Positions 3,775 through 61,074 of a stretch of DNA of 64,000 nt are shown here, piece by piece. Location: contig JAQUSB010000002.1 of assembly GCA_028715345.1 (NCBI GenBank), forward strand, positions 675-64,674, written 5' to 3'. Position numbers and translations under genes: made by a program. Source of the stretch: Candidatus Omnitrophota bacterium. GTDB lineage: Bacteria > Omnitrophota > Gorgyraeia > 2-01-FULL-45-10. Position 1 is the first letter of the stretch. Each line of letters begins with the position of its first letter. The notes below the pieces were generated by a model, which searched no databases, was not told where the DNA came from, and saw nothing but the letters and a program-made list of their open reading frames with translations.

Positions 3775-4134
3775 ATGACAAAGAAATTAGTCATTGTAGC
3801 ATTGGCATTATGTTTCATACTTAGCGGCATCTCTTATGCGGCGGATGCCGAGACCGGCACCCAGAAGGCAAAGAGCTGGTGGCAGAAACTTTTTAACTAC
3901 CCTGCAAACGTGACGAACGAGACGGCGGGCGTGGTTACAGAGGCTGCGAAGGGCGCAACGAGCGTAGTTACTAATGAAGTTAAGACTGTCGGACAGGTTA
4001 CATCAGGCAGCCTTGGAAAGACGCAGAATCTCGTGACAGACCCTGTAATGGGAACGGCCGAAACGGTAAAGAAAGCGGCGGAAGGAACAGCTGCAATACC
4101 GTCGAACGCGAATAAACCCGAAGAAGCGAAATAA
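3775..4134 (+). CDS. secreted low-complexity protein, unknown function
   Basis: 119 aa; cleavable signal peptide (ISYAADA), Thr/Val/Ala-rich repeats; followed by terminator. Confidence 0.4.
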   Translation: MTKKLVIVALALCFILSGISYAADAETGTQKAKSWWQKLFNYPANVTNETAGVVTEAAKGATSVVTNEVKTVGQVTSGSLGKTQNLVTDPVMGTAETVKKAAEGTAAIPSNANKPEEAK

Positions 4135-4165
4135 ATATACGAAAAGTATATTTTATTTATAAGGG

Positions 4166-4198
4166 AAAGCCATATTTTCACAAGAGATATGGCTTTTT
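4166..4198 (+). terminator. intrinsic terminator
   Basis: AAAGCCATAT / ATATGGCTTT 10-bp stem with 11-nt loop followed by TTTTT. Confidence 0.5.
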
Positions 4199-4220
4199 CC
4201 TTGCGCAAGAAAGGCTTATC

Positions 4221-4358
4221 ATGAAAAATTTTGTATTGGCCATGGCAGTTCTCATAACGGCTATGATGCTGGCCGGGTGCGGAGAGACGGTTTCAGGGGT
4301 CGGTAAAGATATCAATCGCATGGGGCGGGGCGTAAACACTTTCTTCTTTCGCCAATGA
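4221..4358 (+). CDS. entericidin EcnA/B-family small lipoprotein (45 aa; absent from ORF track because shorter than 60 aa)
   Basis: MKNFVLAMAVLITAMMLAGCGETVSGVGKDINRMGRGVNTFFFRQ: lipobox LAGC then TxxGxGKDIxxxG entericidin signature; placed between terminator and next gene. Confidence 0.5.
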   Translation: MKNFVLAMAVLITAMMLAGCGETVSGVGKDINRMGRGVNTFFFRQ

Positions 4359-4370
4359 TCGGGGGCCTTA

Positions 4371-5084
4371 ATGGCTATACGGATAAGGGAACAGAATAAC
4401 ATACATATACTTGATATAGACGGCCGCATCGATATAAATTCTTCCGAGCTTATCGAGATGGTTGGATGGCTTGTAAATTCCGGCAAGGTAAACCTCATAT
4501 TCAATTTCGAAAATGTCGACATGATCGATTATAACGGGCTTTCGATACTTGCCATAGCATATAAAAACATAGTGAACCATAAAGGCAAGCTGAAACTGCT
4601 TAATGTGCCGATCTCGGTAATAGAGATGATCAAAGTGGTAAAGCTCGACTCTATTTTCGAGCTATACACGGACGAAGAGACCGCGGTCAACAGCTTTGCC
4701 GAAAGCGAAGTCCAGAAACTGCACTTAAGGCGCAAATTCCCCAGACTTGATATCCACCTGAACGTAGAATACAAGCTTATCAGCGACAACAAGAGCCCTA
4801 AGACATTCAGCGGCAACGTCCTTAATATAAGCGCCGCAGGCCTCTATATTTACACTAAAAATACACTCCCGATAGGCACATTGCTGGACCTGCACTTCAC
4901 CATACCCGACTCAAGCGCAGCGCTTGAAGCTACCGGCCGCGTATCGTGGATCGCCGACAAAGACCTGCAGCCTCACGCCTACCCGGGCATGGGCGTATCC
5001 TTTTCTCATCTCACTCCCGAAAAAGAACTCGCGATAGTCGATTTTATCGATAAAAATGTAAGCCACAGGGCCGACCAATCGTAA
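4371..5084 (+). CDS. STAS (anti-sigma-factor antagonist-like) domain fused to C-terminal PilZ domain
   Basis: N-terminal 110 aa SpoIIAA/STAS-like (NNIHILDIDGRIDINSSELIEMV...LNVPISVIEMIKVVKLDSIF); C-terminal RRKFPRLD (RxxxR) and NISAAG (DxSxxG-like) PilZ motifs. Confidence 0.55.
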   Translation: MAIRIREQNNIHILDIDGRIDINSSELIEMVGWLVNSGKVNLIFNFENVDMIDYNGLSILAIAYKNIVNHKGKLKLLNVPISVIEMIKVVKLDSIFELYTDEETAVNSFAESEVQKLHLRRKFPRLDIHLNVEYKLISDNKSPKTFSGNVLNISAAGLYIYTKNTLPIGTLLDLHFTIPDSSAALEATGRVSWIADKDLQPHAYPGMGVSFSHLTPEKELAIVDFIDKNVSHRADQS

Positions 5085-6025
5085 TGAGTAAGCTCGAGGC
5101 CTTACGCAGGGCAAGCGAAGCATTCAAAGAATCTCTGAAAGACTGTACCATATGCCCGCGCGAATGCGGCGTCGATAGAACGAGCGGTCAAACAGGATAT
5201 TGCCGCGCCCCTTATAACCCGGTAGTATACAGCTATCTTGCGCACAGGGGCGAAGAGCCGCCGATCTCCGGGCGGCGCGGATCGGGCACAATATTCTTCT
5301 CCGGCTGCAATATGAAATGCGTCTACTGCCAGAACTATACATTCAGCCAGCTTGACAGAGGCAGCGGGATGTCCATAGAGAAGCTCTCCGAGACGATGCT
5401 CTACCTGCAGAAGATGGGCTGCCATAACATAAACCTCGTGACCCCCGCTCATTTCGTCCCACAGATAGTGTTCGCTCTCGAAAAAGCGGCAGAGGCCGGG
5501 CTCGATATACCTATCGCGTATAATACAAGCGGATACGACAGCGTCGAAACCCTGAAACTGCTGTCGGGGATAATCGATATCTATATGCCGGATATGCGTT
5601 ATTCTAATAATGAGATGGCCGCGCGGTATTCCGACGCGCCCGGCTACGTGGAAATAAACAGGGCTGCCGTAAAAGAGATGTACAGGCAGGTCGGGAACCT
5701 GGTAATAGATAAAGACGGCATTGCCGTGCGGGGCCTTATAATAAGGCTACTCGCTTTGCCCGATAATATATCGGGGACGATCGAGACGCTTAAATTCATA
5801 AAGGAAAGCATATCTCCCGGCGCATATTTGAGCATCATGAGCCAATACTACCCGACCCACAAGGCATTCGATCACAAAGAGCTGTCGCGGGGCATAACGG
5901 GCGATGAGTACAAAAATGTAGTTGACGCTGTAAAACTTTTGGGGTTAAATAATGGCTGGATACAGGAAATGCCTTCAGGGCCGGACGACAAATTTTTAGG
6001 AACGAACATAAAACCCAGGACATAA
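5084..6025 (+). CDS. radical SAM enzyme, PflA/AmmeMemoRadiSam-type activase family
   Basis: 313 aa; CNMKCVYC (Cx3Cx2C) radical SAM motif preceded by extra N-terminal Cys cluster CTICPRECGVDRTSGQTGYC; start overlaps upstream stop by 1 nt. Confidence 0.65.
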   Translation: MSKLEALRRASEAFKESLKDCTICPRECGVDRTSGQTGYCRAPYNPVVYSYLAHRGEEPPISGRRGSGTIFFSGCNMKCVYCQNYTFSQLDRGSGMSIEKLSETMLYLQKMGCHNINLVTPAHFVPQIVFALEKAAEAGLDIPIAYNTSGYDSVETLKLLSGIIDIYMPDMRYSNNEMAARYSDAPGYVEINRAAVKEMYRQVGNLVIDKDGIAVRGLIIRLLALPDNISGTIETLKFIKESISPGAYLSIMSQYYPTHKAFDHKELSRGITGDEYKNVVDAVKLLGLNNGWIQEMPSGPDDKFLGTNIKPRT

Positions 6026-6026
6026 A

Positions 6027-6740
6027 ATGGCGGCAAGCCGAAAGAAGACGATCTCTCACGCAGACCAATTCGAAGCCCTCTCGAAGGTCAGTAAGACCAT
6101 AACGTCAAATCTATATCTCGAGGACATCCTTAAGCTTATAGTGACCGTCACGGCGGAGATAATGGATTCGAAGATATGTTCCATAATGCTTCTCGACGAT
6201 AAGACCAAAGAATTGGTCTTAAAAGCAACGCAGTCGATGAGCGAAGTGTACAATAAGAAGCCGCCGCTTAAGCTGGGTGAGGGCATAGCAGGTAAGGTCG
6301 CCATTGAAAATAAGCCTAGGGCTATATTCGACCTTTCGAAAGAACCGGAATACAAATACAAAGACATCGCCGTCAAAGAAGGTTTGAAGTCGCTTTTGTC
6401 CGTGCCTCTGGCCGTGAGGGGAAAAGTGATCGGCGTATTGAATAACTACACTTCGCACCCCCACAAATTCACCAAAGACGAGATAAACATCCTTAATACC
6501 GTCGCCAGCCAGGCCGCCATCGTCATCGACAACGCGGAGCTTATGGTAAAAACGAAGGTGGTCCAGGAGGAGCTCGAGACGCGCAAGCTCGTCGAGCGAG
6601 CTAAAGGCATCCTCATGCGCGAGCAGGGGCTGGGCGAAGATGAGGCTTTCCGAAAGATACAGAGACAAAGCATGGATATGCGAAAATCGATGCGCGAGAT
6701 AGCGGAAGCGATAATACTCATAGAGAACATGAAAAAATAA
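6027..6740 (+). CDS. GAF domain + ANTAR domain RNA-binding antitermination regulator (paralog 1)
   Basis: 237 aa; N-terminal GAF-like fold; C-terminal ELETRKLVERAKGILMREQGLGEDEAFRKIQRQSMDMRKSMREIAEAII is a canonical ANTAR helix pair; ~60% identical to ORF 60379..61074. Confidence 0.75.
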   Translation: MAASRKKTISHADQFEALSKVSKTITSNLYLEDILKLIVTVTAEIMDSKICSIMLLDDKTKELVLKATQSMSEVYNKKPPLKLGEGIAGKVAIENKPRAIFDLSKEPEYKYKDIAVKEGLKSLLSVPLAVRGKVIGVLNNYTSHPHKFTKDEINILNTVASQAAIVIDNAELMVKTKVVQEELETRKLVERAKGILMREQGLGEDEAFRKIQRQSMDMRKSMREIAEAIILIENMKK

Positions 6741-6742
6741 TT

Positions 6743-6769
6743 TGACAAAATACGCGGAAGTGATATACT
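6743..6769 (+). promoter_or_regulatory. sigma70-like promoter upstream of nadE
   Basis: TTGACA, 15-16 nt spacer, TATACT. Confidence 0.4.
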
Positions 6770-6856
6770 TACTATGTTAATGATGACATTTGAGGACTCC
6801 GGCGTCCGAATCCTAAGAAAGGATGAGGGCGCTTTTCTGTTTTCAGGATAAATTTT

Positions 6857-8533
6857 ATGAAGAAAAATATGAAGATAGCCATAGCTCAGGTAAATTGCAC
6901 GGTCGGCGATCTCGACGGCAACTCCGCGAAGATAATCGAATATATACAGAAGGCCAAAGCCTTAGGAGCAGATATGGTCTCGTTCCCCGAGCTTGCCGTA
7001 ACCGGCTATCCTCCGGAAGACCTTCTTTTAAAAGACGCATTTATCGCGGATAACCTGGAAGCGTTGAAACGCATAGCGAAGTCCGTGAATGACATAGTGG
7101 CGATAGTGGGATTCGTAGATAAAAAAGAGGGTAGCCTTTATAACGCCGCGGCTATTATATATAAAGCAGAGGTAAAGGGCATCTGCTATAAAGAGCTCCT
7201 GCCGAATTACGGTGTGTTCGATGAGCACCGCTATTTTAAACCCGGCAAAGATTCTCTTGTGTTCAGGCTCGGCGATCTCGTATTCGGCGTGAACGTCTGC
7301 GAAGATATCTGGCATACCGAGGGGCCGCTCTGTTCACAGGCCGCGCTCGGCGCCAAGCTCATCATAAACATAAATTCTTCGCCGTACCACGCGGGAAAAG
7401 TAAAAGAGCGCGAGGATATAGTGAGGCGCCAGGCAAAAGAGAATAACGTAGTGGTGAGCTACGCGAACCTCGTCGGAGGACAGGACGAACTCGTCTTCGA
7501 CGGGCAGAGCATGGTCGTGGACAATACCGGTAAAGTCCTGGTGAGGGCGGAGGCGTTCAAAGAAGACCTCGTCGCGATCGACATAGACATACCGGACGAT
7601 AAAGGCGCTCCTTCTAAAAACGTCATAGTGGTAGCTGACGCATATACACCGAAGAACAAGGCCGCCGCGCCTAAAAAAGACGCAAAGACGCTGGACCCGG
7701 CAGCTGAAATATACGAGGCGCTCCTTCTCGGTTTGAGGGATTACGCCTTCAAGAACGGCTTCAAAAAAGCGGCCATAGGGATGTCGGGCGGCATAGATTC
7801 GGCGCTTGTCGCGGCGCTTGCCAAAGATGCCTTGGGGGGAGAGAACGTTATCGGTATCTATATGCCGACCAGGTATTCGTCGGCGCAATCGGGTATAGAC
7901 GCTAAATCGGTTTCAGACAACCTCGGAATAAAATTTACTACGATCTCTATAGACCATATATATAAACTTTACCTGATGTCTCTGGAACCGCAGTTTGCCG
8001 GAGCCCCTAAAGATATAACGGAAGAGAATATACAGGCCAGGATACGCGGCAACGTCCTGATGGCATTATCGAATAAATTCGGCTACCTGGTATTAACTAC
8101 CGGGAATAAGTCCGAAATGAGCACAGGTTACGCTACATTATACGGCGATATGGCCGGCGGGTTCGCCGTGATAAAGGACGTGCCAAAGACGCTCGTCTAT
8201 AAACTTGCCTCATACCGGAATTCAGTGAGCAGGGTCATCCCGGGATCGGTTATCGCTAAAGCGCCTACGGCGGAATTGCGGCCTAACCAGCTCGATCAGG
8301 ACAACTTGCCCCCATACGACGTCCTCGACAAGATACTGAAAGAATACATAGAGGAAGACAGAGGCTACGATGAAATAGTGGCAATGGGATTCGACAAAGA
8401 CGTTGTGACCAAAGTGATGAATATGGTCGATAGAAGCGAGTACAAGAGGAGACAGTCGCCTCCGGGCATTAAGATAACGCCCAAGGCTTTCGGCAGAGAC
8501 AGGAGGATGCCGATAACGAACAAATACAAATAA
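6857..8533 (+). CDS. nadE: glutamine-dependent NAD+ synthetase
   Basis: 558 aa; N-terminal nitrilase/CN-hydrolase domain + C-terminal NAD synthetase with GMSGGIDSA PP-loop. Confidence 0.9.
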   Translation: MKKNMKIAIAQVNCTVGDLDGNSAKIIEYIQKAKALGADMVSFPELAVTGYPPEDLLLKDAFIADNLEALKRIAKSVNDIVAIVGFVDKKEGSLYNAAAIIYKAEVKGICYKELLPNYGVFDEHRYFKPGKDSLVFRLGDLVFGVNVCEDIWHTEGPLCSQAALGAKLIININSSPYHAGKVKEREDIVRRQAKENNVVVSYANLVGGQDELVFDGQSMVVDNTGKVLVRAEAFKEDLVAIDIDIPDDKGAPSKNVIVVADAYTPKNKAAAPKKDAKTLDPAAEIYEALLLGLRDYAFKNGFKKAAIGMSGGIDSALVAALAKDALGGENVIGIYMPTRYSSAQSGIDAKSVSDNLGIKFTTISIDHIYKLYLMSLEPQFAGAPKDITEENIQARIRGNVLMALSNKFGYLVLTTGNKSEMSTGYATLYGDMAGGFAVIKDVPKTLVYKLASYRNSVSRVIPGSVIAKAPTAELRPNQLDQDNLPPYDVLDKILKEYIEEDRGYDEIVAMGFDKDVVTKVMNMVDRSEYKRRQSPPGIKITPKAFGRDRRMPITNKYK

Positions 8534-8577
8534 GATAGTTGTTTCGGCGATGAGATAACGATAAGCAGGACGAGGAC

Positions 8578-8616
8578 GCCCTTTTTGCGCCATGACGCGC
8601 GAGAAGGGCTTTTTTT
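8578..8616 (+). terminator. intrinsic terminator after nadE
   Basis: 13-bp GC-rich stem (GCCCTTTTTGCGC / GCGCGAGAAGGGC, with G-U pairs) + hexaloop, followed by TTTTTTT. Confidence 0.6.
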
Positions 8617-8648
8617 ATTCAACTGGAACAGAAAAAGGAGAAAACGTT

Positions 8649-9890
8649 ATGAAACAGCTGCGAAAAATTTATTTGATATTGACCGCGTTATCAATTATGG
8701 GTTTACAGGCGCCGTGCCTGCATGCGGAAGACAAACCGGAAGGGCTTGCCATGAGCGCGCTGGGTAAAGCAGGGCTTTCAGAATTTCTCGACAAGGCGGG
8801 TATAAAAATATACGGCTATGCCGAGGGCGGTTATATGTACGACGCTACCGCTCCGCAGCCTTACGCCGGACCGGCCTTTCTGGCATTCAATAATTTAAGG
8901 AATACTCCCATCGTCGATAAAATAAGCCTTAACGCCGAACGGACGGTCGATCCCGCAAAGAAACAATTCGACCTCGGCTTCCGGCTGGAAGGTATATGGG
9001 GATACGACGCGAGATTCATACATTCCAACGGGCTCGGCGATACGCAGACAGGAAGGTACCAGCTTGACCCTCTGCAGGCGTACGTCGATATGGCGCTCCC
9101 TTATGTACCGGTAAAGATCCGGGCGGGCAAATGGATAGAACTGGCGGGTTTCGAACATTTCAGCGCGAATCTTTACGGGGCGTTCGGAGACCCTATGAGA
9201 GCCCTATATTCCTACAGCTACCAGTTCTTTTACGCCGAGCCGGGAACTCAGACGGGCGTCCTCGGCACATACGTGCTTAATCCGCAATGGACGTTCGATT
9301 TCGGATTTACCGAGGGCTGGAACCAGTCCACACGCAATACCGACGGGTACTTGGACCTTTTAGGACGCGTCATTTACACGCCGACGGACAGGACCGCCGT
9401 TACGCTCGTCCTGAACGTAGGCCCGGAATATCCCATAGGCGTTGGGCGGGGGCTGCCTGCTGGGGACACCAAAAACTGGTGGACGGCGATCGACCTGGTC
9501 ATTACGCATAAGCTCACCGACAAATTGAGCCTCGGTACAGGGATCGATATCGTTAACGCGCCGCATATACCCGGCCTGGAGCGGGGATCCAAACAATGGG
9601 GAGGTATAGCCGGATACGCGAGTTATGCCGTCGCTCCGCATTCAACGGTCAATACACGGCTCGAGTGGTTCAACGACTCTTCGGACGGTTTCGCTACCGG
9701 GGCGGGGACGGGAGCCAATTATTACGAAGCGACCCTGGGGGTAGCGGTGAAACTTTTCCCGAAAGATAAGATATTATCCAACTTCCTGTTCAGGCCCGAG
9801 GTGCGCTACGACTGGTCCGACCATGCGGTTTTTGCCGGAGGCGACAGGAGCCAGGTAACGCTGAGCGGAGATGTACTGTTCACTTTTTAG
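8649..9890 (+). CDS. outer-membrane beta-barrel porin (nitrogen cluster-associated)
   Basis: ATG 8649 within ORF 8592..9890; signal peptide ending LHA; alternating aromatic beta-strand pattern; C-terminal ...VLFTF with terminal Phe typical of OMPs. Confidence 0.55.
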   Translation: MKQLRKIYLILTALSIMGLQAPCLHAEDKPEGLAMSALGKAGLSEFLDKAGIKIYGYAEGGYMYDATAPQPYAGPAFLAFNNLRNTPIVDKISLNAERTVDPAKKQFDLGFRLEGIWGYDARFIHSNGLGDTQTGRYQLDPLQAYVDMALPYVPVKIRAGKWIELAGFEHFSANLYGAFGDPMRALYSYSYQFFYAEPGTQTGVLGTYVLNPQWTFDFGFTEGWNQSTRNTDGYLDLLGRVIYTPTDRTAVTLVLNVGPEYPIGVGRGLPAGDTKNWWTAIDLVITHKLTDKLSLGTGIDIVNAPHIPGLERGSKQWGGIAGYASYAVAPHSTVNTRLEWFNDSSDGFATGAGTGANYYEATLGVAVKLFPKDKILSNFLFRPEVRYDWSDHAVFAGGDRSQVTLSGDVLFTF

Positions 9891-9945
9891 GTAAGTAAAG
9901 GTGCAAGGCGGTTAAAGACCGGCAACAAAAAGAAAGGAGAAGGTT

Positions 9946-11181
9946 ATGATAAACTCAGGTGACACAGCTTGGATCCTGATGTCGACGGCGCTCGTTATGC
10001 TGATGACGGCGCCGGGGCTCGCCTTTTTTTACGGCGGCCTGGTGCGGCGCAAAAATGTCCTCGCCACGATGATGCAGTCGTTCTTCGTTTTATGCTTGAT
10101 CAGCATTCAGTGGATATTGTGGGGGTACAGCCTGTCGTTCGGCCCAGACCAGGGCCATTTCATAGGCAGTCTGGCGTGGTTTGGATTAAAAGGGGTCGGG
10201 ATGGCGCCAAACCCGGATTATTCCTCGACGATACCGCATCTTCTGTTCATGGCATACCAGATGATGTTTGCCGTCATTACGCCGGGGCTCATAACAGGCG
10301 CTTTCGCCGAAAGGATGAAATTTTCGGCATATGTGCTCTTTACCTTATTATGGGCGACACTGGTCTATGATCCCGTCTGTCACTGGGTCTGGGGAGCGGG
10401 CGGGTGGTTGCGGAACATGGGCGCCCTGGATTTTGCCGGCGGGACTGTCGTTCACGTCTCTTCGGGTATATCGGCGCTCGTCTGCGCTTTAGTGCTTGGA
10501 CGCAGGAGAGGCTATGGACGCGACCCGATGCCGCCGCACAACCTGCCGCTGACCATCCTCGGCGCTTCCTTATTGTGGTTCGGGTGGTTCGGTTTCAACG
10601 CAGGTTCGGCGCTCGGCTCTACAGAGCTGGCGGTCTGGGCATTCATTGCCACGAATACGGCCGCGGCGGCCGCGGGCCTTACGTGGATGTTCATAGAGTG
10701 GAAGGCTACCGGCAAACCTACGATACTCGGAGGCGCTACCGGAGCAGTGGCAGGGCTCGTCGCGATAACTCCCGGGGCAGGGTTTGTATCACCGATGTCA
10801 GCGATACTCATAGGAGCGATCGTGGCGTTCGTTTGCTATGCGGCAGTCGCTGTGATAAAACTTAAGCTGGCCTATGACGATTCTCTCGATGCGTTCGGGG
10901 TGCACGGGGTAGGCGGAACGCTCGGGGCACTGCTTGTAGGGCTATTTGCCCAGAAACTCATCAACCCCGCGGGAAATAACGGCTTGTTATTCGGCAATGC
11001 TGCCCAACTCGGAGTACAGGCGATAGGCGTAGCCGCTACCATAGTATATTCCGTGGTCGTTACTTTCATACTGCTGAAAGCGGTTGATGCCATAGTAGGA
11101 TTGAGGGTGCCTGACGAAGAGGAAGTGGTCGGGCTCGATATTACCCAGCACGAAGAGAGCGCGTACACGCTGCTGGATTAA
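9946..11181 (+). CDS. amtB: ammonium transporter
   Basis: 411 aa; DTAWILMSTALVMLMTAPGLAFFYGGLVRRKNVL Amt signature, 11 TM pattern. Confidence 0.9.
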   Translation: MINSGDTAWILMSTALVMLMTAPGLAFFYGGLVRRKNVLATMMQSFFVLCLISIQWILWGYSLSFGPDQGHFIGSLAWFGLKGVGMAPNPDYSSTIPHLLFMAYQMMFAVITPGLITGAFAERMKFSAYVLFTLLWATLVYDPVCHWVWGAGGWLRNMGALDFAGGTVVHVSSGISALVCALVLGRRRGYGRDPMPPHNLPLTILGASLLWFGWFGFNAGSALGSTELAVWAFIATNTAAAAAGLTWMFIEWKATGKPTILGGATGAVAGLVAITPGAGFVSPMSAILIGAIVAFVCYAAVAVIKLKLAYDDSLDAFGVHGVGGTLGALLVGLFAQKLINPAGNNGLLFGNAAQLGVQAIGVAATIVYSVVVTFILLKAVDAIVGLRVPDEEEVVGLDITQHEESAYTLLD

Positions 11182-11533: not shown

Positions 11534-11546
11534 ACGTCATTTTTAC

Positions 11547-11575
11547 TTGCATTCGCGAAGGGAAGGTGGTATACT
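11547..11575 (+). promoter_or_regulatory. sigma70-like promoter for glnN leader
   Basis: TTGCAT-17 nt-TATACT; predicted start ~11582 coincides with first leader hairpin. Confidence 0.4.
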
Positions 11576-11581
11576 TAAATT

Positions 11582-11661
11582 GCACGTGGAAGTGCTTTTA
11601 TTTAAAGTAAAAATGAACAGAGACGTTCGTATTACAAAAATATGAATGTTTCTGTTTTTTT
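11582..11661 (+). promoter_or_regulatory. glnN 5' leader: dual small hairpins with hexaloops overlapping an intrinsic terminator (ANTAR-target-like antitermination element)
   Basis: hairpin GCAC-GUGGAA-GUGC (11582..11595); hairpin GAAC-AGAGAC-GUUC (11615..11628, loop A1/G4); 13-bp terminator stem 11616..11628 / 11644..11656 + U-run to 11661 uses the same nucleotides as hairpin 2. Confidence 0.5.
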
Positions 11662-13693: not shown

Positions 13694-13915
13694 GTGGTCG
13701 CAAAAATATATTACGTGCGCCGCAACGCCAAAGAGATGATGGATCTTCTCGAGAAGGCGCAGAAGAAACACCACGAGGAACGCGCCGCCATATATTTCAG
13801 CCGGCTGAAGCCGCTTATGGAACACATCCGTAAGCACGCCGACCAGTTGGAATGCGTGGTTTCGGATGAACATTGGGACCTTCCCAAATACAGGGAGATG
13901 TTGTTCGTTAAATAA
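13694..13915 (+). CDS. glnN: GlnN C-terminal 73 codons, same frame as 11723..13693, directly after internal TAA
   Basis: Starts at the codon after the TAA (13691..13693) in the identical frame; open for 73 codons; ends ...WDLPKYREMLFVK resembling GS-III C-terminus; 656+73 = 729 aa. Confidence 0.6.
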   Translation: MVAKIYYVRRNAKEMMDLLEKAQKKHHEERAAIYFSRLKPLMEHIRKHADQLECVVSDEHWDLPKYREMLFVK

Positions 13916-13935
13916 CAGCGGTAAGTATTTTAGCG

Positions 13936-13955
13936 CCTGCACTACGTAGTGCAGG
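13936..13955. promoter_or_regulatory. 20-bp perfect palindrome CCTGCACTACGTAGTGCAGG (TGCAC/GTGCA half sites)
   Basis: exact reverse-complement symmetry; between glnN and gltB. Confidence 0.4.
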
Positions 13956-13975
13956 ATAACCGGAAGACTGGACAT

Positions 13976-14024
13976 AGGCGTTCAGATTGGTCATAAGACG
14001 ACCGATTTGAATGCCTATTTTTTT
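13976..14024 (+). terminator. intrinsic terminator with apical GGUC-AUAAGAC-GACC mini-hairpin, 20 nt upstream of gltB start
   Basis: 13-bp stem AGGCGUUCAGAUU / GAUUUGAAUGCCU (three G-U) + U7 run; apex hairpin loop ends GAC like the hexaloops in other leaders. Confidence 0.55.
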
Positions 14025-20010: not shown

Positions 20011-20077
20011 CTGAATTAACTTGGCCGCTCGTAGAACTCGCGGCACTTAGCTAACCCATAGGCTGAATTAACTTGCT
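20011..20077 (+). repeat. REP/MITE-like intergenic repeat, copy A
   Basis: CTGAATTAACTTGGCCGCTCGTAGAACTCGCGGCACTTAGCTAACCCATAGGCTGAATTAACTTG; related to copies at 50801..50856 and 57268..57337 (reverse); internal 13-bp direct repeat CTGAATTAACTTG at both ends. Confidence 0.6.
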
Positions 20078-22111: not shown

Positions 22112-22139
22112 TTGACATTTTTGGCTTAAGGGTTATAAT
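22112..22139 (+). promoter_or_regulatory. consensus sigma70 promoter for hppA super-operon
   Basis: TTGACA-16 nt-TATAAT. Confidence 0.55.
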
Positions 22140-22145
22140 ACTGCT

Positions 22146-22217
22146 ATAATCTGACAGACAACGACGTCTTCCAAAAGACCTCCCTTGTTAGGATGGTGCA
22201 GGAGGTCTTCTTTTTTA
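22146..22217 (+). promoter_or_regulatory. hppA 5' leader: AGAC-AACGAC-GUCU hexaloop hairpin + intrinsic terminator
   Basis: hairpin 22156..22169 (loop A1/G4); alternative GUCUU/AAGAC pairing; terminator AAGACCUCC...GGAGGUCUU (22175..22209) + U6; 35 nt before hppA ATG. Confidence 0.5.
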
Positions 22218-22251: not shown

Positions 22252-24576
22252 ATGGTTTATGGATTGACTTTTTTCGAACAGATCGCCATATGGAGCGTTC
22301 TGGGAGTATCTATACTGGGTTTACTGTATGCGCTCTTCCTGCGAAAACAGATATTGCTCGAGGATAAAGGCGACAACAAAATGATAGAGGTATGGAACGC
22401 CATCCGCGAGGGCGCGAACGCTTACCTTAAGAAACAGCTATTTTCCATCCTTCCTTTAATAGGCATACTTACATTCGCGCTATTCTTTTCCGTGTATATA
22501 GTCCCGCCGTCCGAAGAGGCGTTACAGCGCTTCGCCGGCCAGCCGGAGAATACGGTCAGGTTCATCATAGGTATAGGCAGGGCGCTCGCGTTCGTTATGG
22601 GCGCGATATTCTCGCTGCTCGTAGGACAGCTCGGTATGCGCATGGCGGTCCAAGGCAACGTCAGAGTAGCCCAGGCCGCGAAGAGATCGTTCGGGGACGC
22701 CCTCAGGATCGCGTATCGATCGGGCACCATCACAGGTATGCTCACAGACGGCCTCGGGCTTTTCGGAGGCACGATAATCTTCATCATATTCGGGGTCGCA
22801 GCGCCGGACGCGCTGTTAGGGTTCGGTTTCGGCGGAACATTGCTCGCGCTCTTTATGAGGGTGGGCGGCGGCATCTACACCAAGGCAGCGGACGTAGGGG
22901 CGGACCTCGTCGGTAAAGTCGAAGCGGGAATACCCGAGGACGATCCGCGCAACCCCGCAGTGGTCGCGGACTTAGTCGGTGACAATGTCGGCGATTGCGC
23001 CGGGATGGCAGCCGATATTTTCGAATCTTACGAAGTCACAATAGTCTCGGGCCTTATACTCGGGCTCGCGCTCTATCATATAACTCACAGGCTGGAATGG
23101 ATAGTCTATCCGCTTTTAGTCCGCGGCATAGGCGTGCTCTGCTCGATCATCGGCACTTACGCCGTCAAGGGCAGCCCGTCGAAGAGCGGCAACGCGATGA
23201 AAGCGATATTCCACGGCTTTCTCACGTCGGCGGCGATATCGATCGCTTTATTCGGCATTCTCGCATATGTTTACATGAACAAACTGCCGGGCGGCTGGTG
23301 GAGGCCTTTTCTGGCAACGGCTGTCGGAGTAGGTCTTGCGATAGCGATCGACCGCCTTACCGAATATTTCACCGGTACAGAAGGTAAACCGGTGCGCGAG
23401 ATCAGGAAGTCCACAGGCACGGGTTCGGCTACCACTATATTGTCCGGCATCGCGGTAGGATACGAATCGGCCGTCTGGTCGATCATCGTTATCGCTACGA
23501 CGATATTCTCATCCATCGTCATATTCGGCACAATACCCGGTATCGAGGGCGCGGCAAGGGTCACTTATATACTCTACGGCGTCGCGATGACAGGCATAGG
23601 CATGCTGACCCTTACGGGCAACAACGTGGCCATGGATTCGTTCGGCCCGATCGCGGATAACGCGAACGGGATAGGAGAGATGGCCTGGCACGGGAAACAG
23701 GATAAAGACACCAAGGACGCCCGCAAGATCATGGCCGATCTCGACGGCGTAGGCAATACCACAAAAGCGATCACCAAAGGAGTTGCAATAGGCTCGGCGG
23801 TTATCGCGGCTGTGGCGCTGTTCGGTTCATACATGGTCGACGTAAGTAAAGTCCAGGCGGCTTTAGGGATATTGCCGGCCGACCAGTTAAATTCGATAGG
23901 TATACGCGTATCGGTCCCGCAGGTCTTCGTCGGCATGCTGATCGGAGGAGCGATACCGTGGCTATTCTCGGCGTTCAGCATACAGGCTGTGGCGAGAGCC
24001 GCATCCCTTATTGTCCATGAAGTCAGGCGCCAATTCAAGCTCGGCGTCCTCGAAGGCAAAATGAAGCCCGATTATCAGCAGGCAGTATCGATCTCAACGA
24101 CCGCGGCGCAGAAAGAATTGGTAGGGCTTGCGGTCATAAGCATAGTGTCTCCTATAGTAGTAGGTTTAGTCCTCCAGGTCGAAGCACTCGGCGGATTCTT
24201 GGCCGGTATAATCCTGTCAGGCCAACTGCTCGCAGTATTTATGTCGAATGCCGGCGGGGCGTGGGATAACGCTAAAAAGACCATAGAAGACGAAGCCCGC
24301 AGCATAGAAAATAATACCGGTAAAGGATCCGAGCGCCACAAGGCGGCGGTAGTAGGGGATACGGTCGGCGATCCGTTAAAAGATACAGCGGGCCCGGCGC
24401 TCAATCCGATGATAAAAGTAGTCAACCTTGTTTCGGTAATAATCGCACCTATAATAGTGCAATACAATAAACTCGGCATAGGCGGCTGGGTAGTCGTTTC
24501 ATTACTCTGCGCATCTTTGGTCTGGGCAATACTCAAGAGTAAACGCCCGGCACCGGAATTGGCGCCGACAAAGTAA
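22252..24576 (+). CDS. hppA: membrane-bound proton-translocating pyrophosphatase, K+-independent type
   Basis: 774 aa; GGIYTKAADVGADLVGKVE, DNVGDCAGMAADIFESY and GNTTKA (Lys = K+-independent) signatures. Confidence 0.9.
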   Translation: MVYGLTFFEQIAIWSVLGVSILGLLYALFLRKQILLEDKGDNKMIEVWNAIREGANAYLKKQLFSILPLIGILTFALFFSVYIVPPSEEALQRFAGQPENTVRFIIGIGRALAFVMGAIFSLLVGQLGMRMAVQGNVRVAQAAKRSFGDALRIAYRSGTITGMLTDGLGLFGGTIIFIIFGVAAPDALLGFGFGGTLLALFMRVGGGIYTKAADVGADLVGKVEAGIPEDDPRNPAVVADLVGDNVGDCAGMAADIFESYEVTIVSGLILGLALYHITHRLEWIVYPLLVRGIGVLCSIIGTYAVKGSPSKSGNAMKAIFHGFLTSAAISIALFGILAYVYMNKLPGGWWRPFLATAVGVGLAIAIDRLTEYFTGTEGKPVREIRKSTGTGSATTILSGIAVGYESAVWSIIVIATTIFSSIVIFGTIPGIEGAARVTYILYGVAMTGIGMLTLTGNNVAMDSFGPIADNANGIGEMAWHGKQDKDTKDARKIMADLDGVGNTTKAITKGVAIGSAVIAAVALFGSYMVDVSKVQAALGILPADQLNSIGIRVSVPQVFVGMLIGGAIPWLFSAFSIQAVARAASLIVHEVRRQFKLGVLEGKMKPDYQQAVSISTTAAQKELVGLAVISIVSPIVVGLVLQVEALGGFLAGIILSGQLLAVFMSNAGGAWDNAKKTIEDEARSIENNTGKGSERHKAAVVGDTVGDPLKDTAGPALNPMIKVVNLVSVIIAPIIVQYNKLGIGGWVVVSLLCASLVWAILKSKRPAPELAPTK

Positions 24577-47321: not shown

Positions 47322-47885
47322 ATGAGCTACCAGCAGGCGATAGAAAAAGCGTGGGGCGCGATCTCCGCGACGGCCGATGACGGAAATAAGCAGGTTAAGG
47401 TCAAGCTGCTCGGCGATACATACACGGTCGACCTGAAGGCTAAGACCATACTTTCCGATTCCTGCAATGTACCCGCAAAAGAGTACGTCTCGATAATACT
47501 GCTCCACTACCTGGCCAAGAAAGCAAATTTAAAGGAACTCCCGCGGCCGACAGGCGAATGGATAGATTTCAAAGAACTCGCGGGCGGGGAAGGTTACTAT
47601 CCCGCCTTCAAGAAACGTACCATAGACCGCATCGTAAAGAAATACGGCGCGGATCCCGACGCGCTCAAGACCGTTCTCAGGCGCATGCCGGGTAAACCCG
47701 GGGATAAAGACGATGTCAGTGTGGTCATACGCCCGTTCGAAGAGACCGCCATACTTATAACGATGTCGAAAGCCGATGAAGAGTTCGGCCCAGACGCGGC
47801 AATTTTGTTCGATAAGAACATTTCGGCCATTTTCTGCACAGAGGACATAGTCGTCCTGACCGAAATGGTAGTGCATTTACTCTAA
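47322..47885 (+). CDS. hypothetical protein (possibly DUF3786-like)
   Basis: 187-aa ORF with coding-like composition; 14-bp palindrome TATAGTATACTATA 5-18 nt upstream of ATG. Confidence 0.35.
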   Translation: MSYQQAIEKAWGAISATADDGNKQVKVKLLGDTYTVDLKAKTILSDSCNVPAKEYVSIILLHYLAKKANLKELPRPTGEWIDFKELAGGEGYYPAFKKRTIDRIVKKYGADPDALKTVLRRMPGKPGDKDDVSVVIRPFEETAILITMSKADEEFGPDAAILFDKNISAIFCTEDIVVLTEMVVHLL

Positions 47886-50800: not shown

Positions 50801-50856
50801 AAGGCCTCGGTCGGAGACCTCGGCACTTAGCCAACACTATGGCTGAATAAACTTGG
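50801..50856 (+). repeat. REP/MITE-like intergenic repeat, copy B (between kinase and response regulator)
   Basis: AAGGCCTCGGTCGGAGACCTCGGCACTTAGCCAACACTATGGCTGAATAAACTTGG; shares the CGGCACTTAGCnAACnCnATGGCTGAAT(T/A)AACTTG core with 20011..20077. Confidence 0.6.
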
Positions 50857-54716: not shown

Positions 54717-56108
54717 ATGGAAAAGAAGAAATTTTTATTGAATGAAGAGGATATGCCAAAACAGTGGTACAACATAGCCGCTGACCTGCCGACACCGATG
54801 CAGCCGCCCATGGGGCCGGACGGCAATCCGATAAAGCCTGAAATGCTTGCGCCGGTATTCCCGGACAACATTATAGAGCAGGAGATGAGCCGTGAGCGAT
54901 GGATAGACATACCGGCTGAAGTTCTCGACCTTTTACGCATCTGGCGCCCGACGCCGCTTATCAGGGCGACACGGTTGGAGGCATACCTGAAAACACCCGC
55001 GAAGATATACTACAAAGACGAGAGCGTAAGCCCGGCCGGAAGCCACAAACCGAATTCAGCCGTTCCTCAGGCCTGGTACAATAAACAATTCGGGATAAAG
55101 AAGCTCACGACCGAGACCGGAGCGGGGCAGTGGGGATCCGCCCTTGCCTTCGCTACAAGCCTTTTGGGCCTGGAATGTAAAGTTTATATGGTCAGGATAA
55201 GCTTCGACCAGAAGCCTTTCAGGAAAACGCTTATGCAGGTATGGGGCGCCAATTGCATAGCCAGCCCCAGCAAAGAGACTAAGTCCGGGCGGGAGATACT
55301 CAAGAAGATGCCCGATACTCCTGGAAGTTTAGGCATAGCCATAAGCGAAGCTATCGAGGAGGCGGTATCTGACAAGACAGGGAAGACCCGCTACACATTA
55401 GGCAGTGTATTAAACCACGTCCTGCTCCACCAGACCATCATAGGCCTGGAGGCAAAAAAACAGCTTGCCGCCGCAGGGGTAAAAAAGCCCGACATAGTCA
55501 TAGGCTGTGCCGGCGGCGGTAGTAATTTCGCGGGGCTCTCCTTTCCTTTCATATGCGACAAGATACACGGGGCGAAGATCGAGGTCTATCCCGTAGAGTC
55601 TACGACATGCCCGAAGATGACGCGCGGGCCGTTCGCTTACGATTTCGGAGATACGGCGCGCATGACGCCGCTATTGCCTATGTACACGCTCGGCCATACC
55701 TTCGTCCCGCCGCCGATACACGCGGGCGGGCTGCGTTATCACGGTATGGCGCCGCTTGTGAGCCAGTGCATAGTAGAAGGCCTGGCCACGCCGCGCTCTT
55801 ACGACCAGGTGAAATGCTACGACGCGGCCCTTACATGGGCGAGGACCGAAGGCACGATATGCGCTCCCGAGACGAGCCACGCGATCGCCTGCGCCATAGA
55901 CGAGGCTAAAAGAGCGAAACAGGAAGGAAAAGAGAAGACCATCCTTTTCAGTTACAGCGGGCACGGGTTATTGGACCTGACAGGTTACGATAAATACATG
56001 TCCGGCCACCTGAAAGAACTCCATCTTTCCGACAGCGAATTGTGCGAATCCCTTGAGATAATCAAGGATTTCCCGAAAGTCAAAAAAGCAAAGACCGGCA
56101 AGTGGTAA
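54717..56108 (+). CDS. TrpB-like PLP-dependent enzyme (TrpB2 family)
   Basis: 463 aa; PLP-Lys motif GSHKPN; Gly-rich GCAGGGSNFAG loop. Confidence 0.7.
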   Translation: MEKKKFLLNEEDMPKQWYNIAADLPTPMQPPMGPDGNPIKPEMLAPVFPDNIIEQEMSRERWIDIPAEVLDLLRIWRPTPLIRATRLEAYLKTPAKIYYKDESVSPAGSHKPNSAVPQAWYNKQFGIKKLTTETGAGQWGSALAFATSLLGLECKVYMVRISFDQKPFRKTLMQVWGANCIASPSKETKSGREILKKMPDTPGSLGIAISEAIEEAVSDKTGKTRYTLGSVLNHVLLHQTIIGLEAKKQLAAAGVKKPDIVIGCAGGGSNFAGLSFPFICDKIHGAKIEVYPVESTTCPKMTRGPFAYDFGDTARMTPLLPMYTLGHTFVPPPIHAGGLRYHGMAPLVSQCIVEGLATPRSYDQVKCYDAALTWARTEGTICAPETSHAIACAIDEAKRAKQEGKEKTILFSYSGHGLLDLTGYDKYMSGHLKELHLSDSELCESLEIIKDFPKVKKAKTGKW

Positions 56109-56329
56109 AAATATCCGTAAAAGTCAAAGCCGGATCAAAGCAATATCTGGTCGAGCCCGCCGGAGAGAACCAATACGTCCTGCGCGTAAAGGAAAAAGCG
56201 CTCGAAGGCAGGGCAAACAAGGCAGTGATAGAATTATTGAGCGAATATTTCGACATACCCAAAAGCGCAATATCGATAATCGCCGGGTTTAAAAGTAAAA
56301 ACAAATTGATAGCGATAAAAAAAGATTGA
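56102..56329 (+). CDS. DUF167 (YggU-like) protein
   Basis: 75 aa; VKAGSKQ...EGRANKAVIELL pattern of UPF0235. Confidence 0.55.
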   Translation: MVKISVKVKAGSKQYLVEPAGENQYVLRVKEKALEGRANKAVIELLSEYFDIPKSAISIIAGFKSKNKLIAIKKD

Positions 56330-56353: not shown

Positions 56354-56359
56354 CGCTTT

Positions 56360-56425
56360 TGACAGTACAATTTAAATTAATAGCGAAGACAAAGACGTCT
56401 GCCACTATAGTGGCGGCGTTTTTTT
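56360..56425 (+). promoter_or_regulatory. nfnA 5' leader: AGAC-AAAGAC-GUCU hexaloop hairpin abutting intrinsic terminator
   Basis: hairpin 56387..56400; terminator CUGCCAC-UAUA-GUGGCGG (56399..56418) + U7; terminator stem uses CU of the hairpin 3' arm. Confidence 0.5.
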
Positions 56426-56458: not shown

Positions 56459-57286
56459 ATGAAGATACTGAATAAAAAAGTTTTGGGTGAGGTCCAGGGC
56501 ATAAAGATAACGATGCTGGAGGTTGCGGCACCGGACATTGCCCGCAAAGCTAAAGCCGGGCAATTCGTAGCGCTCATGGTAAAAGAAACGGGCGAGAGGA
56601 TACCTCTCACCATTGTAGATAGGAGCGACAAGAACGGCTCTATAACACTCATATTCCAGGAGGCCGGGCTTACCACGCGCCTCCTGGGAAGCCTCAACAT
56701 CGGCGACTCCCTCTACGCGATCGTCGGCCCGCTCGGCCACGCCACGGAGATAAAAAAATACGGCAGGATAATACTGGTAGGCGGCGGCGTAGGCATAGCC
56801 GAGATATACCCGGTCGCTAAAGCTTTTAAAAAAGCGGGCAACAACGTTACCACAATACTGGGGACGCGGACCAAAGACCTGCTCATACTCGAAAAAGAAT
56901 TAAAAGAAACCTCCGACATCTTACACGTCGTCACCGACGACGGCTCGTACGGTAAAAAAGGTTTCACCACCGACGTATTGACGGATCTCCTGAAAAAAGA
57001 CAGATACGACCTCGTTTACGCGGTCGGCCCGATACCTATGATGAGACGGGTCTCCGACATCACCAAAGGGTTCGGCGTGAAGACCGTAGTGTCGCTGAAC
57101 GCTCTCATGGTCGACGCTACCGGCATGTGCGGGTGCTGCAGGGTCACGGTCGGAGGCGCGGTCAAATTCAGCTGCGTAGACGGCCCCGAATTCGACGCAG
57201 GCGACGTCGACTGGGACGAGCTCGTGAAGAGGAACAGGATATACGAAGACAAAGAAAAACATATATGTAAGTTAATTCAGCCATAG
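56459..57286 (+). CDS. nfnA: NfnA/SudB-type FAD/[2Fe-2S] oxidoreductase small subunit (PyrK-like)
   Basis: 275 aa; ferredoxin-NADP reductase-like fold and C-terminal CGCCRV...C cluster. Confidence 0.65.
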   Translation: MKILNKKVLGEVQGIKITMLEVAAPDIARKAKAGQFVALMVKETGERIPLTIVDRSDKNGSITLIFQEAGLTTRLLGSLNIGDSLYAIVGPLGHATEIKKYGRIILVGGGVGIAEIYPVAKAFKKAGNNVTTILGTRTKDLLILEKELKETSDILHVVTDDGSYGKKGFTTDVLTDLLKKDRYDLVYAVGPIPMMRRVSDITKGFGVKTVVSLNALMVDATGMCGCCRVTVGGAVKFSCVDGPEFDAGDVDWDELVKRNRIYEDKEKHICKLIQP

Positions 57287-57337
57287 TGTTGGCTAAATGC
57301 CGAGATCTCCGATCGAGGCCAAGTTGTTAATTAAACC
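57268..57337 (-). repeat. REP/MITE-like intergenic repeat, copy C (inverted), overlapping last 6 codons of nfnA
   Basis: reverse complement TTTAATTAACAACTTGGCCTCGATCGGAGATCTCGGCATTTAGCCAACACTATGGCTGAATTAACTTAC aligns with copies A/B. Confidence 0.6.
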
Positions 57338-60143: not shown

Positions 60144-60230
60144 TACCATTGACAGACTGATGGGACCATGCTAAAATAAGTAAAATTTGGATATAAAAGC
60201 ACAATGTATGTGCTTTTGCGAAGAAGGGAC

Positions 60231-60268
60231 GAAGGCGTTCTCGAAAAGGGAACGCCTTCTTCTTTTTT
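60231..60268 (+). terminator. intrinsic terminator after gdhA
   Basis: GAAGGCGTTC / GAACGCCTTC 10-bp stem, 10-nt loop, TTCTTTTTT. Confidence 0.6.
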
Positions 60269-60378
60269 ACCTTCTTTATTAAGATAAGTTAAATTATCCG
60301 AAACAAAGGTGTTTCATATGCCGATGACAGGCACTATGGGGCATCTTTTCTATTTTTTAATCAGATATCGAGGTAAAT

Positions 60379-61074
60379 ATGGATAGGCCGCTTGATAAAC
60401 AGATAACAGCATTGTCAAAAATAAGCAAGGTCATCGTGTCGGACATGTATCTGGAAGACATCCTTAAGCTGATAGTGAACGTGACGGCGGAAATGATGGA
60501 TTCGAAGATATGCTCTCTTATGCTTATCGACTACAAAACAAAACAGCTCGTAATACGCGCGACCCAGAGCATGAGCGACGCGTACAATAAAAAATTGCCT
60601 TTGAAGATAGGGGAAGGCATAGCCGGAAAAGCGGCAAAAGAGAATAAGCCTATCATCGTAAAGGACATCGCAAAAGAAAAAGAATATAAGCACAAGGATA
60701 TAGCGGAAAAAGAGAATCTTTCGTCCCTTCTATGCGTGCCTTTGTCCGTGAAGAACAGGGTAATAGGCGTGATAAACTGCTACACTTCGAAGCCCCATGA
60801 TTTCACCGAAACGGAAGTCACTATACTGACTTCCATAGCAAATCAGGCCGCGGTCGCGATCGAAAATACGGAGCTGGCCATAAAGAGCAGGCTCGCCAAA
60901 GAAGAACTCGAGACGCGAAAAAAGATAGAACGCGCCAAGGGCATAATAATGAAAGACGAGGGCAAGACCGAAGAAGAGGCGTATCTGAAATTGCAGAAAT
61001 ACAGTATGGATAACCGCAAGAGCCTGCGCGAAGTAGCGGAGGCCGTCATACTTGCGGCGGATATAAAAAAGTAA
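60379..61074 (+). CDS. GAF + ANTAR domain regulator (paralog 2)
   Basis: 231 aa; collinear with 6027..6740; ELETRKKIERAKGIIMKDEGKTEEEAYLKLQKYSMDNRKSLREVAEAVI ANTAR. Confidence 0.75.
   Translation: MDRPLDKQITALSKISKVIVSDMYLEDILKLIVNVTAEMMDSKICSLMLIDYKTKQLVIRATQSMSDAYNKKLPLKIGEGIAGKAAKENKPIIVKDIAKEKEYKHKDIAEKENLSSLLCVPLSVKNRVIGVINCYTSKPHDFTETEVTILTSIANQAAVAIENTELAIKSRLAKEELETRKKIERAKGIIMKDEGKTEEEAYLKLQKYSMDNRKSLREVAEAVILAADIKK

Follow-up and report, generated by a model that had tools for sequence, protein, structure and literature searches.

Why should an intrinsic terminator stand between a consensus promoter and the gene that the promoter precedes? The question is raised by the leader of hppA, a membrane pyrophosphatase gene on contig JAQUSB010000002.1 of a Candidatus Omnitrophota bacterium (assembly GCA_028715345.1), within the 64,000 nucleotides (nt) of DNA analysed here and called the window. 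The initial annotation of this DNA had reported a perfect promoter, a small hairpin with the loop AACGAC and a 9-base-pair (bp) terminator with a U6 tract 35 nt ahead of the hppA start codon, and had argued that transcription of the downstream genes must read conditionally through the terminator. All of these elements are present. The idea of a conditional attenuator is also supported. The order of promoter, hairpins, terminator and hppA is found again in at least eight related Omnitrophota leaders. The leader is most probably an ANTAR-type, protein-dependent transcription attenuator, a reading to which a probability of roughly 0.7 can be given. Sequences, conservation, covariation, folding energies and the presence of regulators are shown directly; where transcription starts, that protein binds, which signal acts and in which direction regulation runs are deduced from them.

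The binding sites of ANTAR proteins are small hairpins whose six-base loops require a G at position 4 (G4) and usually have an A at position 1 (A1); binding prevents the overlapping terminator from forming (PMC3369931, PMC8934654). G4 stacks on Tyr164 of the ANTAR protein EutV, while A1 is not contacted (PMC8934654). A target is defined by two hairpins (P1 and P2) of at least 3 bp with A1 and G4 in their hexaloops, P2 overlapping the terminator (PMC3369931). The linker between them measures 5-12 nt in the eut leaders of Enterococcus faecalis, where 3 or 14 nt impair function (PMC3369931). In the hppA leader both stems reach 3 bp, the linker falls in the 5-12 nt range, P2 overlaps the terminator, and ANTAR genes are present in the genome (Table 1). 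P1 carries a 6-nt loop with A1 and G4, and P2 a 7-nt loop with G4 and C at its first position.

The stem of P1 joins AGAC (22156-59) to GTCT (22166-69) around the loop AACGAC (22160-65). The terminator pairs AAGACCTCC (22175-83) with GGAGGTCTT (22201-09) in a 9-bp stem followed by T6 at 22211-16; a simple terminator scan did not pick it up because its loop is 17 nt long. P1 itself does not overlap the terminator. P2 has a UCC/GGA core (22181-22193) and two further pairs past a 1-nt bulge, and was recognised only from the leaders of relatives. As P2 shares 22179-83 with the 5′ arm of the terminator, the two folds are mutually exclusive. P1 and P2 together amount to -3.9 kcal/mol in the window versus -18 for the terminator fold, and across hppA leaders to about -4 kcal/mol versus -17 to -25. 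This imbalance suggests that termination is the default and that read-through depends on a stabilising protein, in line with the ANTAR systems characterised so far.

Further evidence comes from orthologous leaders. The order promoter-P1-linker-P2-terminator is kept in four other Omnitrophota hppA leaders, whose HppA proteins are 89-93% identical to that of the window. L167/L168 (93% identity) carry P1 AGAC[AAUGAU]GUCU, a 12-nt linker and P2 UCC[UUCGUA]GGA, while L171 (89%) has AGAC[AAAGAA]GUCU, 10 nt and UCC[UGCGUA]GGA. In L166 (89%) these are AUGGA[GAAGCU]UCUAU, 5 nt and UCC[UUCGUG]GGA, and in L169 (90%) a candidate P1 AAAU[CAUGAGA]AUUU, 11 nt and UCU[UUCGUU]AGA. P2 is formed in every relative from the last bases of the terminator 5′ arm and the first bases of the terminator loop. 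Its five pairs, CCUCC...GGA-N-GG with a one-base bulge, are all kept in the window, L167, L171, L166 and L169. The first loop base is C in the window and U in these four relatives, all of which have 6-nt loops. The MAFFT leader alignments place the P2 5′ arm of the window one column off owing to its extra loop base, so that P2 pairs were tabulated by script. In L169, a C-to-U change in the arm shared by P2 and the terminator is matched by G-to-A changes in the 3′ arms of P2 and of the terminator alike. This double compensation implies selection on both predicted alternative folds and is the strongest such sign. RNAalifold applied to six orthologous leaders keeps all 9 terminator pairs, and compensatory changes are seen at two of these. 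Away from the hairpins, the orthologous leaders show little sequence conservation. The more distant hppA leaders L003 and L083 (85% identity) possess a different terminator, GUCUUCUGG.../...AGAAGAC, which is overlapped directly by GAGAC[UAAGGC]GUCUU or GAAGAU[AAUGAU]GUCUUC, respectively.

Two candidate trans-acting proteins are encoded in the window. Regulators 1 and 2 are GAF-ANTAR proteins, 63% identical to each other, whose ANTAR domains match Rv1626, EutV and NasR. In an alignment to EutV (6wsh), the equivalents of Tyr164 and Met172 are Y and M in regulator 2 and F and M in regulator 1. The presence of these two genes, which the initial annotation of the leader did not bring in, offers an explanation for the P1 hexaloop. 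Regulator 2 has more than 5500 homologs with E ≤1e-20; of the best 120, nearly all those that carry a name come from Omnitrophota, and NCBI lists the identical protein under 'Candidatus Omnitrophica bacterium'. The GAF domains most resemble those of PtsP (EI-Ntr) and of Nlh/NifA-type regulators. PtsP- and NifA-type GAF domains have been linked to the sensing of glutamine or 2-oxoglutarate, and by analogy a similar signal is plausible for the window proteins. The surrounding genes encode a glutamine-dependent NAD synthetase, a porin, AmtB, P-II, a type III glutamine synthetase (GSIII), GltB, GltD and an amino-acid permease; NfnAB-like proteins, glutamate dehydrogenase and CTP synthase are encoded further along the window. 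GAF-ANTAR proteins are abundant, but the ANTAR literature consulted yielded no characterised example, and a full-text search for ANTAR in Omnitrophota returned no paper, a weak result given that the term also matched 'Antarctic'.

The hppA leader belongs to a larger set. Inspection of all intergenic regions revealed a recurrent arrangement in which a promoter is followed by a single G4 hairpin or a pair of them, the last one having bases in common with a terminator. At least seven further leaders with hexaloops and terminators occur in the window, bringing the predicted switches to at least eight with hppA (Table 1). The copy before porin-amtB-glnB is less certain due to an A.C mismatch in its P2; its P1 is an 8-bp hairpin. 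A possible P1 before nfnA, UUG[ACAGUA]CAA (56359-70), is doubtful, as it sits on the predicted transcription start. Two units lie in tandem before the regulator 2 gene. The first (60195-60268) comprises P1 GCAC[AAUGUAU]GUGC, P2 GGGAC[GAAGGC]GUUCU and a terminator; the second (60300-60359) consists of GAAAC[AAAGGU]GUUUC and a terminator. In three species, P1 of this regulator 2 leader likewise has a heptaloop with G4. The ortholog in L162 is preceded by three attenuators in tandem (L162 9677-10000), the third with a variant P2. Such tandem arrays imply that the synthesis of regulator 2 would be under steep autoregulation. As the same type of switch is found at the leaders of nitrogen genes, the energy operon that begins with hppA appears to be part of a nitrogen-assimilation ANTAR regulon.

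Counts of the hairpin class support this grouping. The class NNAC[NNNGRC]GUNN, its outer bases paired, has 10 matches on the + strand of the window, where about 0.9 are expected (no more than 5 in any of 200 simulations), and one match on the - strand. Leader terminators adjoin six of the + strand matches; four intragenic matches, at 1080, 1561, 8392 and 52562, have none and were treated as chance. A slightly wider class gives 123 matches in 3.16 Mb of control loci, mostly from other phyla, 16 of them with a downstream T run. Across the class, two stem positions alternate between G-C and A-U pairs in a covarying manner, and the loop G is invariant. A covariance model was seeded exclusively with hairpins of other genomes, including those of hppA and regulator 2 orthologs. 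Its top three window matches are the hairpins of regulator 2, nfnA (second, E 0.006) and hppA (third, E 0.006), at 20.3-20.7 bits and rough E-values of about 0.005-0.006, with the nfnA match being the only one fully independent of the seed. Model matches at 47841 and 58752 lack a terminator and were likewise ascribed to chance. The loops AACGAC (hppA) and AAAGAC (nfnA) both fit the A1/G4 rule of ANTAR targets.

Related genomes repeat the pattern. Regulator 2 orthologs in L161 and L162 lie amid nitrogen-assimilation genes with hairpin-terminator leaders. L162 contains five class hairpins, each overlapping a terminator, before genes for glutamate dehydrogenase, the ANTAR protein (two of the hairpins), a GerE-family protein and glutamine synthetase, and a degenerate copy before amtB; L161 has such leaders before ANTAR and CTP synthase genes. 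hppA is itself linked to nitrogen or ANTAR genes in relatives, in the orders GSIII-permease-hppA, gltBD-hppA and ANTAR-nadE-hppA, the last in L082. There, the regulator 1 ortholog, nadE and hppA follow in direct succession with overlapping or very short gaps. Read from sequence, this gene order is itself an hppA-ANTAR link.

Table 1. Features of the hppA leader, its predicted sister attenuators and the candidate regulators (window positions)
Feature	Position	Strand	Details
Sigma-70-type promoter, TTGACA-16-TATAAT	22112..22139	+	promoter scan 12/12
Second -10-like hexamer, TGcTATAAT, 5 nt past -10	22145..22150	+	scan 10/12, TG extension
P1, 4-bp hairpin AGAC[AACGAC]GUCU, hexaloop with A1 and G4	22156..22169	+	-2.9 kcal/mol
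P1-P2 linker, 11 nt to core P2 at 22181	22170..22178	+	5-12 nt in E. faecalis eut leaders (PMC3369931)
P2, putative antiterminator, CCUCC[CUUGUUA]GGA-u-GG	22179..22196	+	uses terminator 5′ arm
Intrinsic terminator AAGACCUCC/GGAGGUCUU, then C and U6	22175..22216	+	-14.7 kcal/mol
hppA, membrane pyrophosphatase, first gene under predicted control	22252..24576	+	Pfam H_PPase E 5e-237
Predicted sister attenuator before nadE	6774..6843	+	P1 AUGUU[AAUGAU]GACAU, P2 GGAC[UCCGGC]GUCC, overlapping terminator
Probable sister attenuator before porin-amtB-glnB	8538..8616	+	P1 GUUGUUUC[GGCGAU]GAGAUAAC; near-P2 GGAC[GAGGAC]GCCC overlaps terminator
Predicted sister attenuator before GSIII gene	11582..11661	+	P1 GCAC[GUGGAA]GUGC, P2 GAAC[AGAGAC]GUUC inside terminator
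Predicted sister attenuator before gltB-gltD-permease	13937..14024	+	P1 CUGCAC[UACGUA]GUGCAG, P2 GGAC[AUAGGC]GUUC inside terminator
Predicted sister attenuator before nfnA-nfnB-gdh	56359..56425	+	P2 AGAC[AAAGAC]GUCU (56387-56400) overlaps terminator GACGUCUGCCAC..GUGGCGGCGU with U7
Two predicted tandem attenuators before regulator 2 gene	60195..60359	+	conserved in L161
GAF-ANTAR regulator 1, candidate trans-acting antiterminator	6027..6740	+	Pfam ANTAR 3e-22, GAF_2 9e-21
GAF-ANTAR regulator 2, candidate trans-acting antiterminator	60379..61074	+	Pfam ANTAR 1e-19

In the proposed mechanism, RNA polymerase would initiate at the consensus promoter, near 22146. P1 would be transcribed first, followed by the 11-nt linker, and the region beyond it could then fold either as P2 or as the much more stable terminator. 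Without the regulator, the terminator would form and transcripts would stop about 35 nt short of hppA. Active GAF-ANTAR proteins, one or both of them, would bind the G4 loops of P1 and P2, the likely trigger being nitrogen or carbon status sensed by the GAF domain. Bound P2 would stay closed and keep CCUCC from the terminator 3′ arm, permitting polymerase to continue through hppA and the Mbh/Mrp-type hydrogenase genes and probably on into those for ATP synthase. Identical logic may apply at the at least seven other leaders of the window, those of nadE, porin-amtB-glnB, GSIII, gltBD-permease, nfnAB-gdh and the regulator 2 gene. It is also conceivable, if doubtful, that the two regulators read different subsets of hairpins and thereby integrate two signals (2-oxoglutarate/glutamine and energy/redox), and that binding to P1 alone at hppA favours termination, giving the energy operon a logic opposite to, or graded against, that of the assimilation genes. 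The latter idea arises because the 3′ arm of P1 is also able to pair with the first bases of the terminator arm, and because P2 is weakened. If this reading were true, a combinatorial two-regulator antitermination code would connect nitrogen assimilation with the conservation of ion-motive energy in an uncultured phylum.

The -35 hexamer TTGACA (22112-22117) and the -10 hexamer TATAAT (22134-22139) are spaced by 16 nt. Allowing a single mismatch, the window has four promoters of this spacing versus 0.28 expected, which speaks against chance. TTGACA-N16/17-TATAAT is kept before the leaders of L167, L171, L166, L169, L165, L003, L083 and L170. YATAAT recurs at the same 5-nt offset as the second -10-like hexamer in the hppA leaders of L171, L165 and L166, that is, in four orthologous leaders including that of the window. 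This hexamer could serve as a tandem promoter, or sigma-70-dependent pausing at it could leave the regulator enough time for P1 binding. Starting at the hppA ATG (22252), 35 nt past the terminator T tract, the gene array continues downstream with Mbh/Mrp-type hydrogenase and ATP synthase genes. The closest relatives of HppA are Omnitrophota proteins annotated as sodium-translocating pyrophosphatases; the HppA sequence of the window itself has no entry in the exact-match index.

Several observations weigh against an ANTAR-type attenuator. Compared with the eut leaders, P2 in the window departs from the consensus, with its 7-nt loop, C in place of A1 and a 1-nt stem bulge. An alternative register with a 6-nt loop gives just 2 bp and places the G at position 3. 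A search of the window leader for a canonical second hexaloop (at least 3 bp, 6-nt loop, G4) returned only an all-wobble hairpin. Among relatives, L165 has a degenerate P2 despite 93% HppA identity, with a C.A closing pair and no loop G, and its P1 is AU-only. The leaders of L081, L170, L001 and L005 contain terminators or hairpins without a recognisable G4 hexaloop hairpin, and hppA in L082 and L002 has no leader at all. Stability of the whole leader relative to shuffled sequence shows no excess (z = 0.14); the terminator is backed by conservation with compensatory changes instead. A loose hairpin definition (stem of at least 4 bp, hexaloop, G4) gives 322 + strand matches, so that such hairpins are common by chance, and it was replaced by the tighter class described above; P2 came to light in a search for this very feature. 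Finally, the covariation count is supportive rather than independent, because pairing was a selection criterion.

A first alternative is that there is no regulation, the terminator serving to end the gltBD-permease transcript and being leaky or inefficient for a short nascent RNA, with the promoter placed by chance and the hexaloop incidental or vestigial. The compact spacing suits this idea, the upstream amino-acid permease gene of the gltBD-permease array having its stop at 22099. So does the persistence of promoter and terminator without a clear hexaloop hairpin in L081, L170 and L001, as does the imperfect P2 of the window. In L166, however, the upstream gene has its own hairpin ahead of the promoter, and the leader terminator is still found past the promoter. 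Moreover, the chance of an exact class match, estimated from the background rate, is about 0.002 per 100-nt leader, yet such matches are found in the window, L003, L167 and L171, and the coordinated change in L169 speaks for selection on P2 as well as on the terminator. An unregulated terminator is accordingly unlikely.

A second alternative retains a switch and dispenses with the protein: a three-hairpin attenuator made of RNA alone, set by transcription kinetics or a small ligand. This is close to the initial annotation, which pointed to a competing GUCUU/AAGAC pairing; that pairing would act as antiterminator and the first hairpin as anti-antiterminator. The complementarity exists, between GTCTT (22166-70) and AAGAC (22175-79), so that three mutually exclusive pairings can indeed be drawn. 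In stepwise folding, GUCUU/AAGAC is briefly part of the minimum-energy structure while only 22146-22190 is available (-4.5 to -7.4 kcal/mol). A comparable pairing can be drawn by eye in L167 (GUCUU/AAGGC) and weakly in L171. However, the antiterminator role is not supported: the pairing is worth -3.3 kcal/mol versus -14.7 for the terminator, and a fold containing it is 9 kcal/mol worse than P1 plus terminator. It is impossible in L166 and none is seen in L169. The conserved CCUCC[loop]GGA-N-GG inside the terminator is the better candidate for the antiterminator. Furthermore, about 25 nt are too short for a ligand pocket, no Rfam family is matched, and the proposal leaves unexplained both the invariant loop G and the same hairpin class before seven other terminators near ANTAR genes. 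An RNA-only attenuator is thus improbable. GUCUU/AAGAC may be a by-product, the P1 3′ arm resembling the terminator 3′ arm, although it may have a modulating role, as distinct from that of the switch.

Still less probable is a free-standing, trans-acting small RNA of about 65-70 nt to which control of hppA would be secondary. The promoter is very strong and any leader terminator yields such a short transcript, but sequence outside the hairpins is poorly conserved, no Rfam match is found, and the element always lies directly upstream of hppA on the same strand. Rfam 15 gave 0 matches over the whole window at gathering score, and around the leader, with E up to 10, only chance-level matches with E of at least 0.18, far under the cut-offs.

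Least likely of all, AGAC-N6-GTCT could be a DNA operator at which a dimeric transcription factor, bound at about +10 to +24, prevents initiation or halts elongation, as its arms are identical in the window, L003, L167 and L171 with a varying spacer and the repeat recurs in the nfnA leader, but across the regulon the arms covary (GGAC/GUCC, GAAC/GUUC, AAAC/GUUU, GCAC/GUGC) around a fixed sense-strand loop G, the bias of 10 + versus 1 - strand matches is unexpected for a symmetric DNA site, and the hairpins are positioned by terminators rather than promoters, the gltB copy (13970) lacking an obvious upstream promoter.

Three other candidates were rejected. Guanidine-II, preQ1 and fluoride riboswitches, considered for the small ACGA-containing loop, are disfavoured in that the nfnA copy has AAAGAC in its loop, such a hairpin is present only once, and Rfam gives no match. 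CsrA-type control, which would involve GGA in the terminator loop and the Shine-Dalgarno sequence, is less satisfactory since GGAUGG is better explained as the P2 3′ arm covarying with CCUCC. Leader-peptide attenuation lacks a suitable reading frame, as the sole leader AUG (22194) is without usable ribosome-binding-site spacing and is absent in L167 and L169.

The likeness between the hppA and nfnA leaders, taken in the initial annotation for a duplicated regulatory cassette, can be explained by the same ANTAR-type attenuator. The two regions share an AAAAA...TTGACATTTT...GTTATAAT promoter, TGACAG and a 14-nt hairpin (13 of 14 bases), so that the alignment does extend beyond the promoter hexamers. 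The 14-mer AGACAANGACGTCT is found exactly twice in the window, at 22156 and 56387, and with up to two mismatches four times versus 0.89 expected, so that chance is unlikely for the hairpin as well. The shared hairpin is P1 in the hppA leader, whereas it is the terminator-overlapping P2 in the nfnA leader. Duplication itself finds no support: the hairpin class also precedes at least six other terminators in the window and others in further genomes, and TGACAG is absent from orthologous hppA leaders. The nfnA ortholog of L162 has no such leader. The similarity is best read as a common, predicted regulator-binding motif together with consensus promoters, not as duplication. The -35 TTGACA hexamer of nfnA contains the TGA stop (56327-56329) of a DUF167 gene (56102-56329).

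Among known systems, the closest counterparts of the hppA leader are those that precede eutP, eutG, eutS and eutA, controlled by EutV in E. faecalis. Both consist of two hairpins of at least 3 bp with G4 loops (A1 in P1) joined by a linker of 5-12 nt, and in both P2 shares the terminator 5′ arm and the hairpins are weak, so that termination would be the default. The equivalents of EutV Tyr164 and Met172 are kept in the window regulators, with Phe for Tyr in regulator 1. The sensor of EutV is a phosphorylated receiver domain and its targets concern ethanolamine; that of the window proteins is a GAF domain, with nitrogen-assimilation and energy targets predicted from sequence. NasR/nasF of Klebsiella oxytoca and AmiR/amiE of Pseudomonas aeruginosa likewise combine an A1/G4 hexaloop upstream of a leader terminator with a nitrogen theme. 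In both, an ANTAR protein with a ligand-sensing N-terminal domain binds the hexaloop hairpin, as is predicted for the window. These two systems use NIT or AmiC-controlled sensors and serve one operon each, in contrast to the multi-operon regulon with GAF sensors proposed here.

For Desulfotomaculum acetoxidans, Ramesh et al. (2012, PMC3369931) predicted an ANTAR nitrogen regulon whose attenuators number at least 13, spread over six transcription units. As in the window, many attenuators, several in series, precede genes for P-II, an ammonium transporter, glutamine synthetase and glutamate synthase. The window differs in belonging to Omnitrophota and in encoding two paralogous GAF-ANTAR regulators. 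Its putative targets, pyrophosphatase/Mbh-Mrp hydrogenase/ATP synthase, NfnAB-like proteins and NAD synthetase, along with CTP synthase in L161, are absent from the examples in the text of PMC3369931. New here are therefore the phylum, the GAF class of sensor, the density of sites and, as targets, the hppA/Mbh-Mrp hydrogenase/ATP synthase array and NfnAB-like genes; already known are the ANTAR mechanism, its motif and nitrogen regulons, predicted across bacteria in 2012 (PMC3369931).

One family of RNA-binding regulators appears to control most of Omnitrophota nitrogen assimilation through at least eight leader terminators, which provides a testable map for an uncultured phylum. The range of predicted ANTAR targets is widened, suggesting that the supply of ATP and reductant is co-regulated with the glutamine synthetase-glutamate synthase (GS-GOGAT) pathway. 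The more than 5500 close GAF-ANTAR homologs, each likely with leaders of its own, constitute a data set for the RNA code and its signal. When such genomes are annotated, a terminator found just after a promoter should be taken as a probable switch and not as an error.

Further observations concern the surrounding loci. In L082, a related Omnitrophota contig, positions 4026-10426 hold genes for PilZ-STAS, radical SAM and GAF-ANTAR proteins, then nadE, hppA and ATP synthase genes, and leaders are absent throughout. Compared with this order, nadE and hppA are separated in the window by a block of nitrogen genes, and hydrogenase genes follow hppA. In the nadE-porin spacer, the porin-leader terminator's own loop, CAUGAC, also has G4. 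The promoter-region motif TTTTTACTTG(C/T)AT lies ahead of the GSIII leader in the window (11540-11560) and of the amtB and glutamine synthetase leaders in L162 (13400-13420 and 15210-15230), and may be a conserved -35/UP element or the site of a further regulator. The GSIII frame seems to run on past its stop at 13693 (13694-13930), and its 656 amino acids compared with 729-730 in orthologs suggest a frameshift, a sequencing error or a split gene. Lastly, three intergenic spacers contain a dispersed repeat about 35 nt long, CGGCACTTAGCnAACnCnATGGCTGAATnAACTTG, at 20041-20075 (+), 50821-50855 (+) and 57268-57302 (-). The three copies compare with 0 expected, Rfam gives no match, and the repeat resembles a repetitive extragenic palindromic (REP)- or miniature inverted-repeat transposable element (MITE)-like element.

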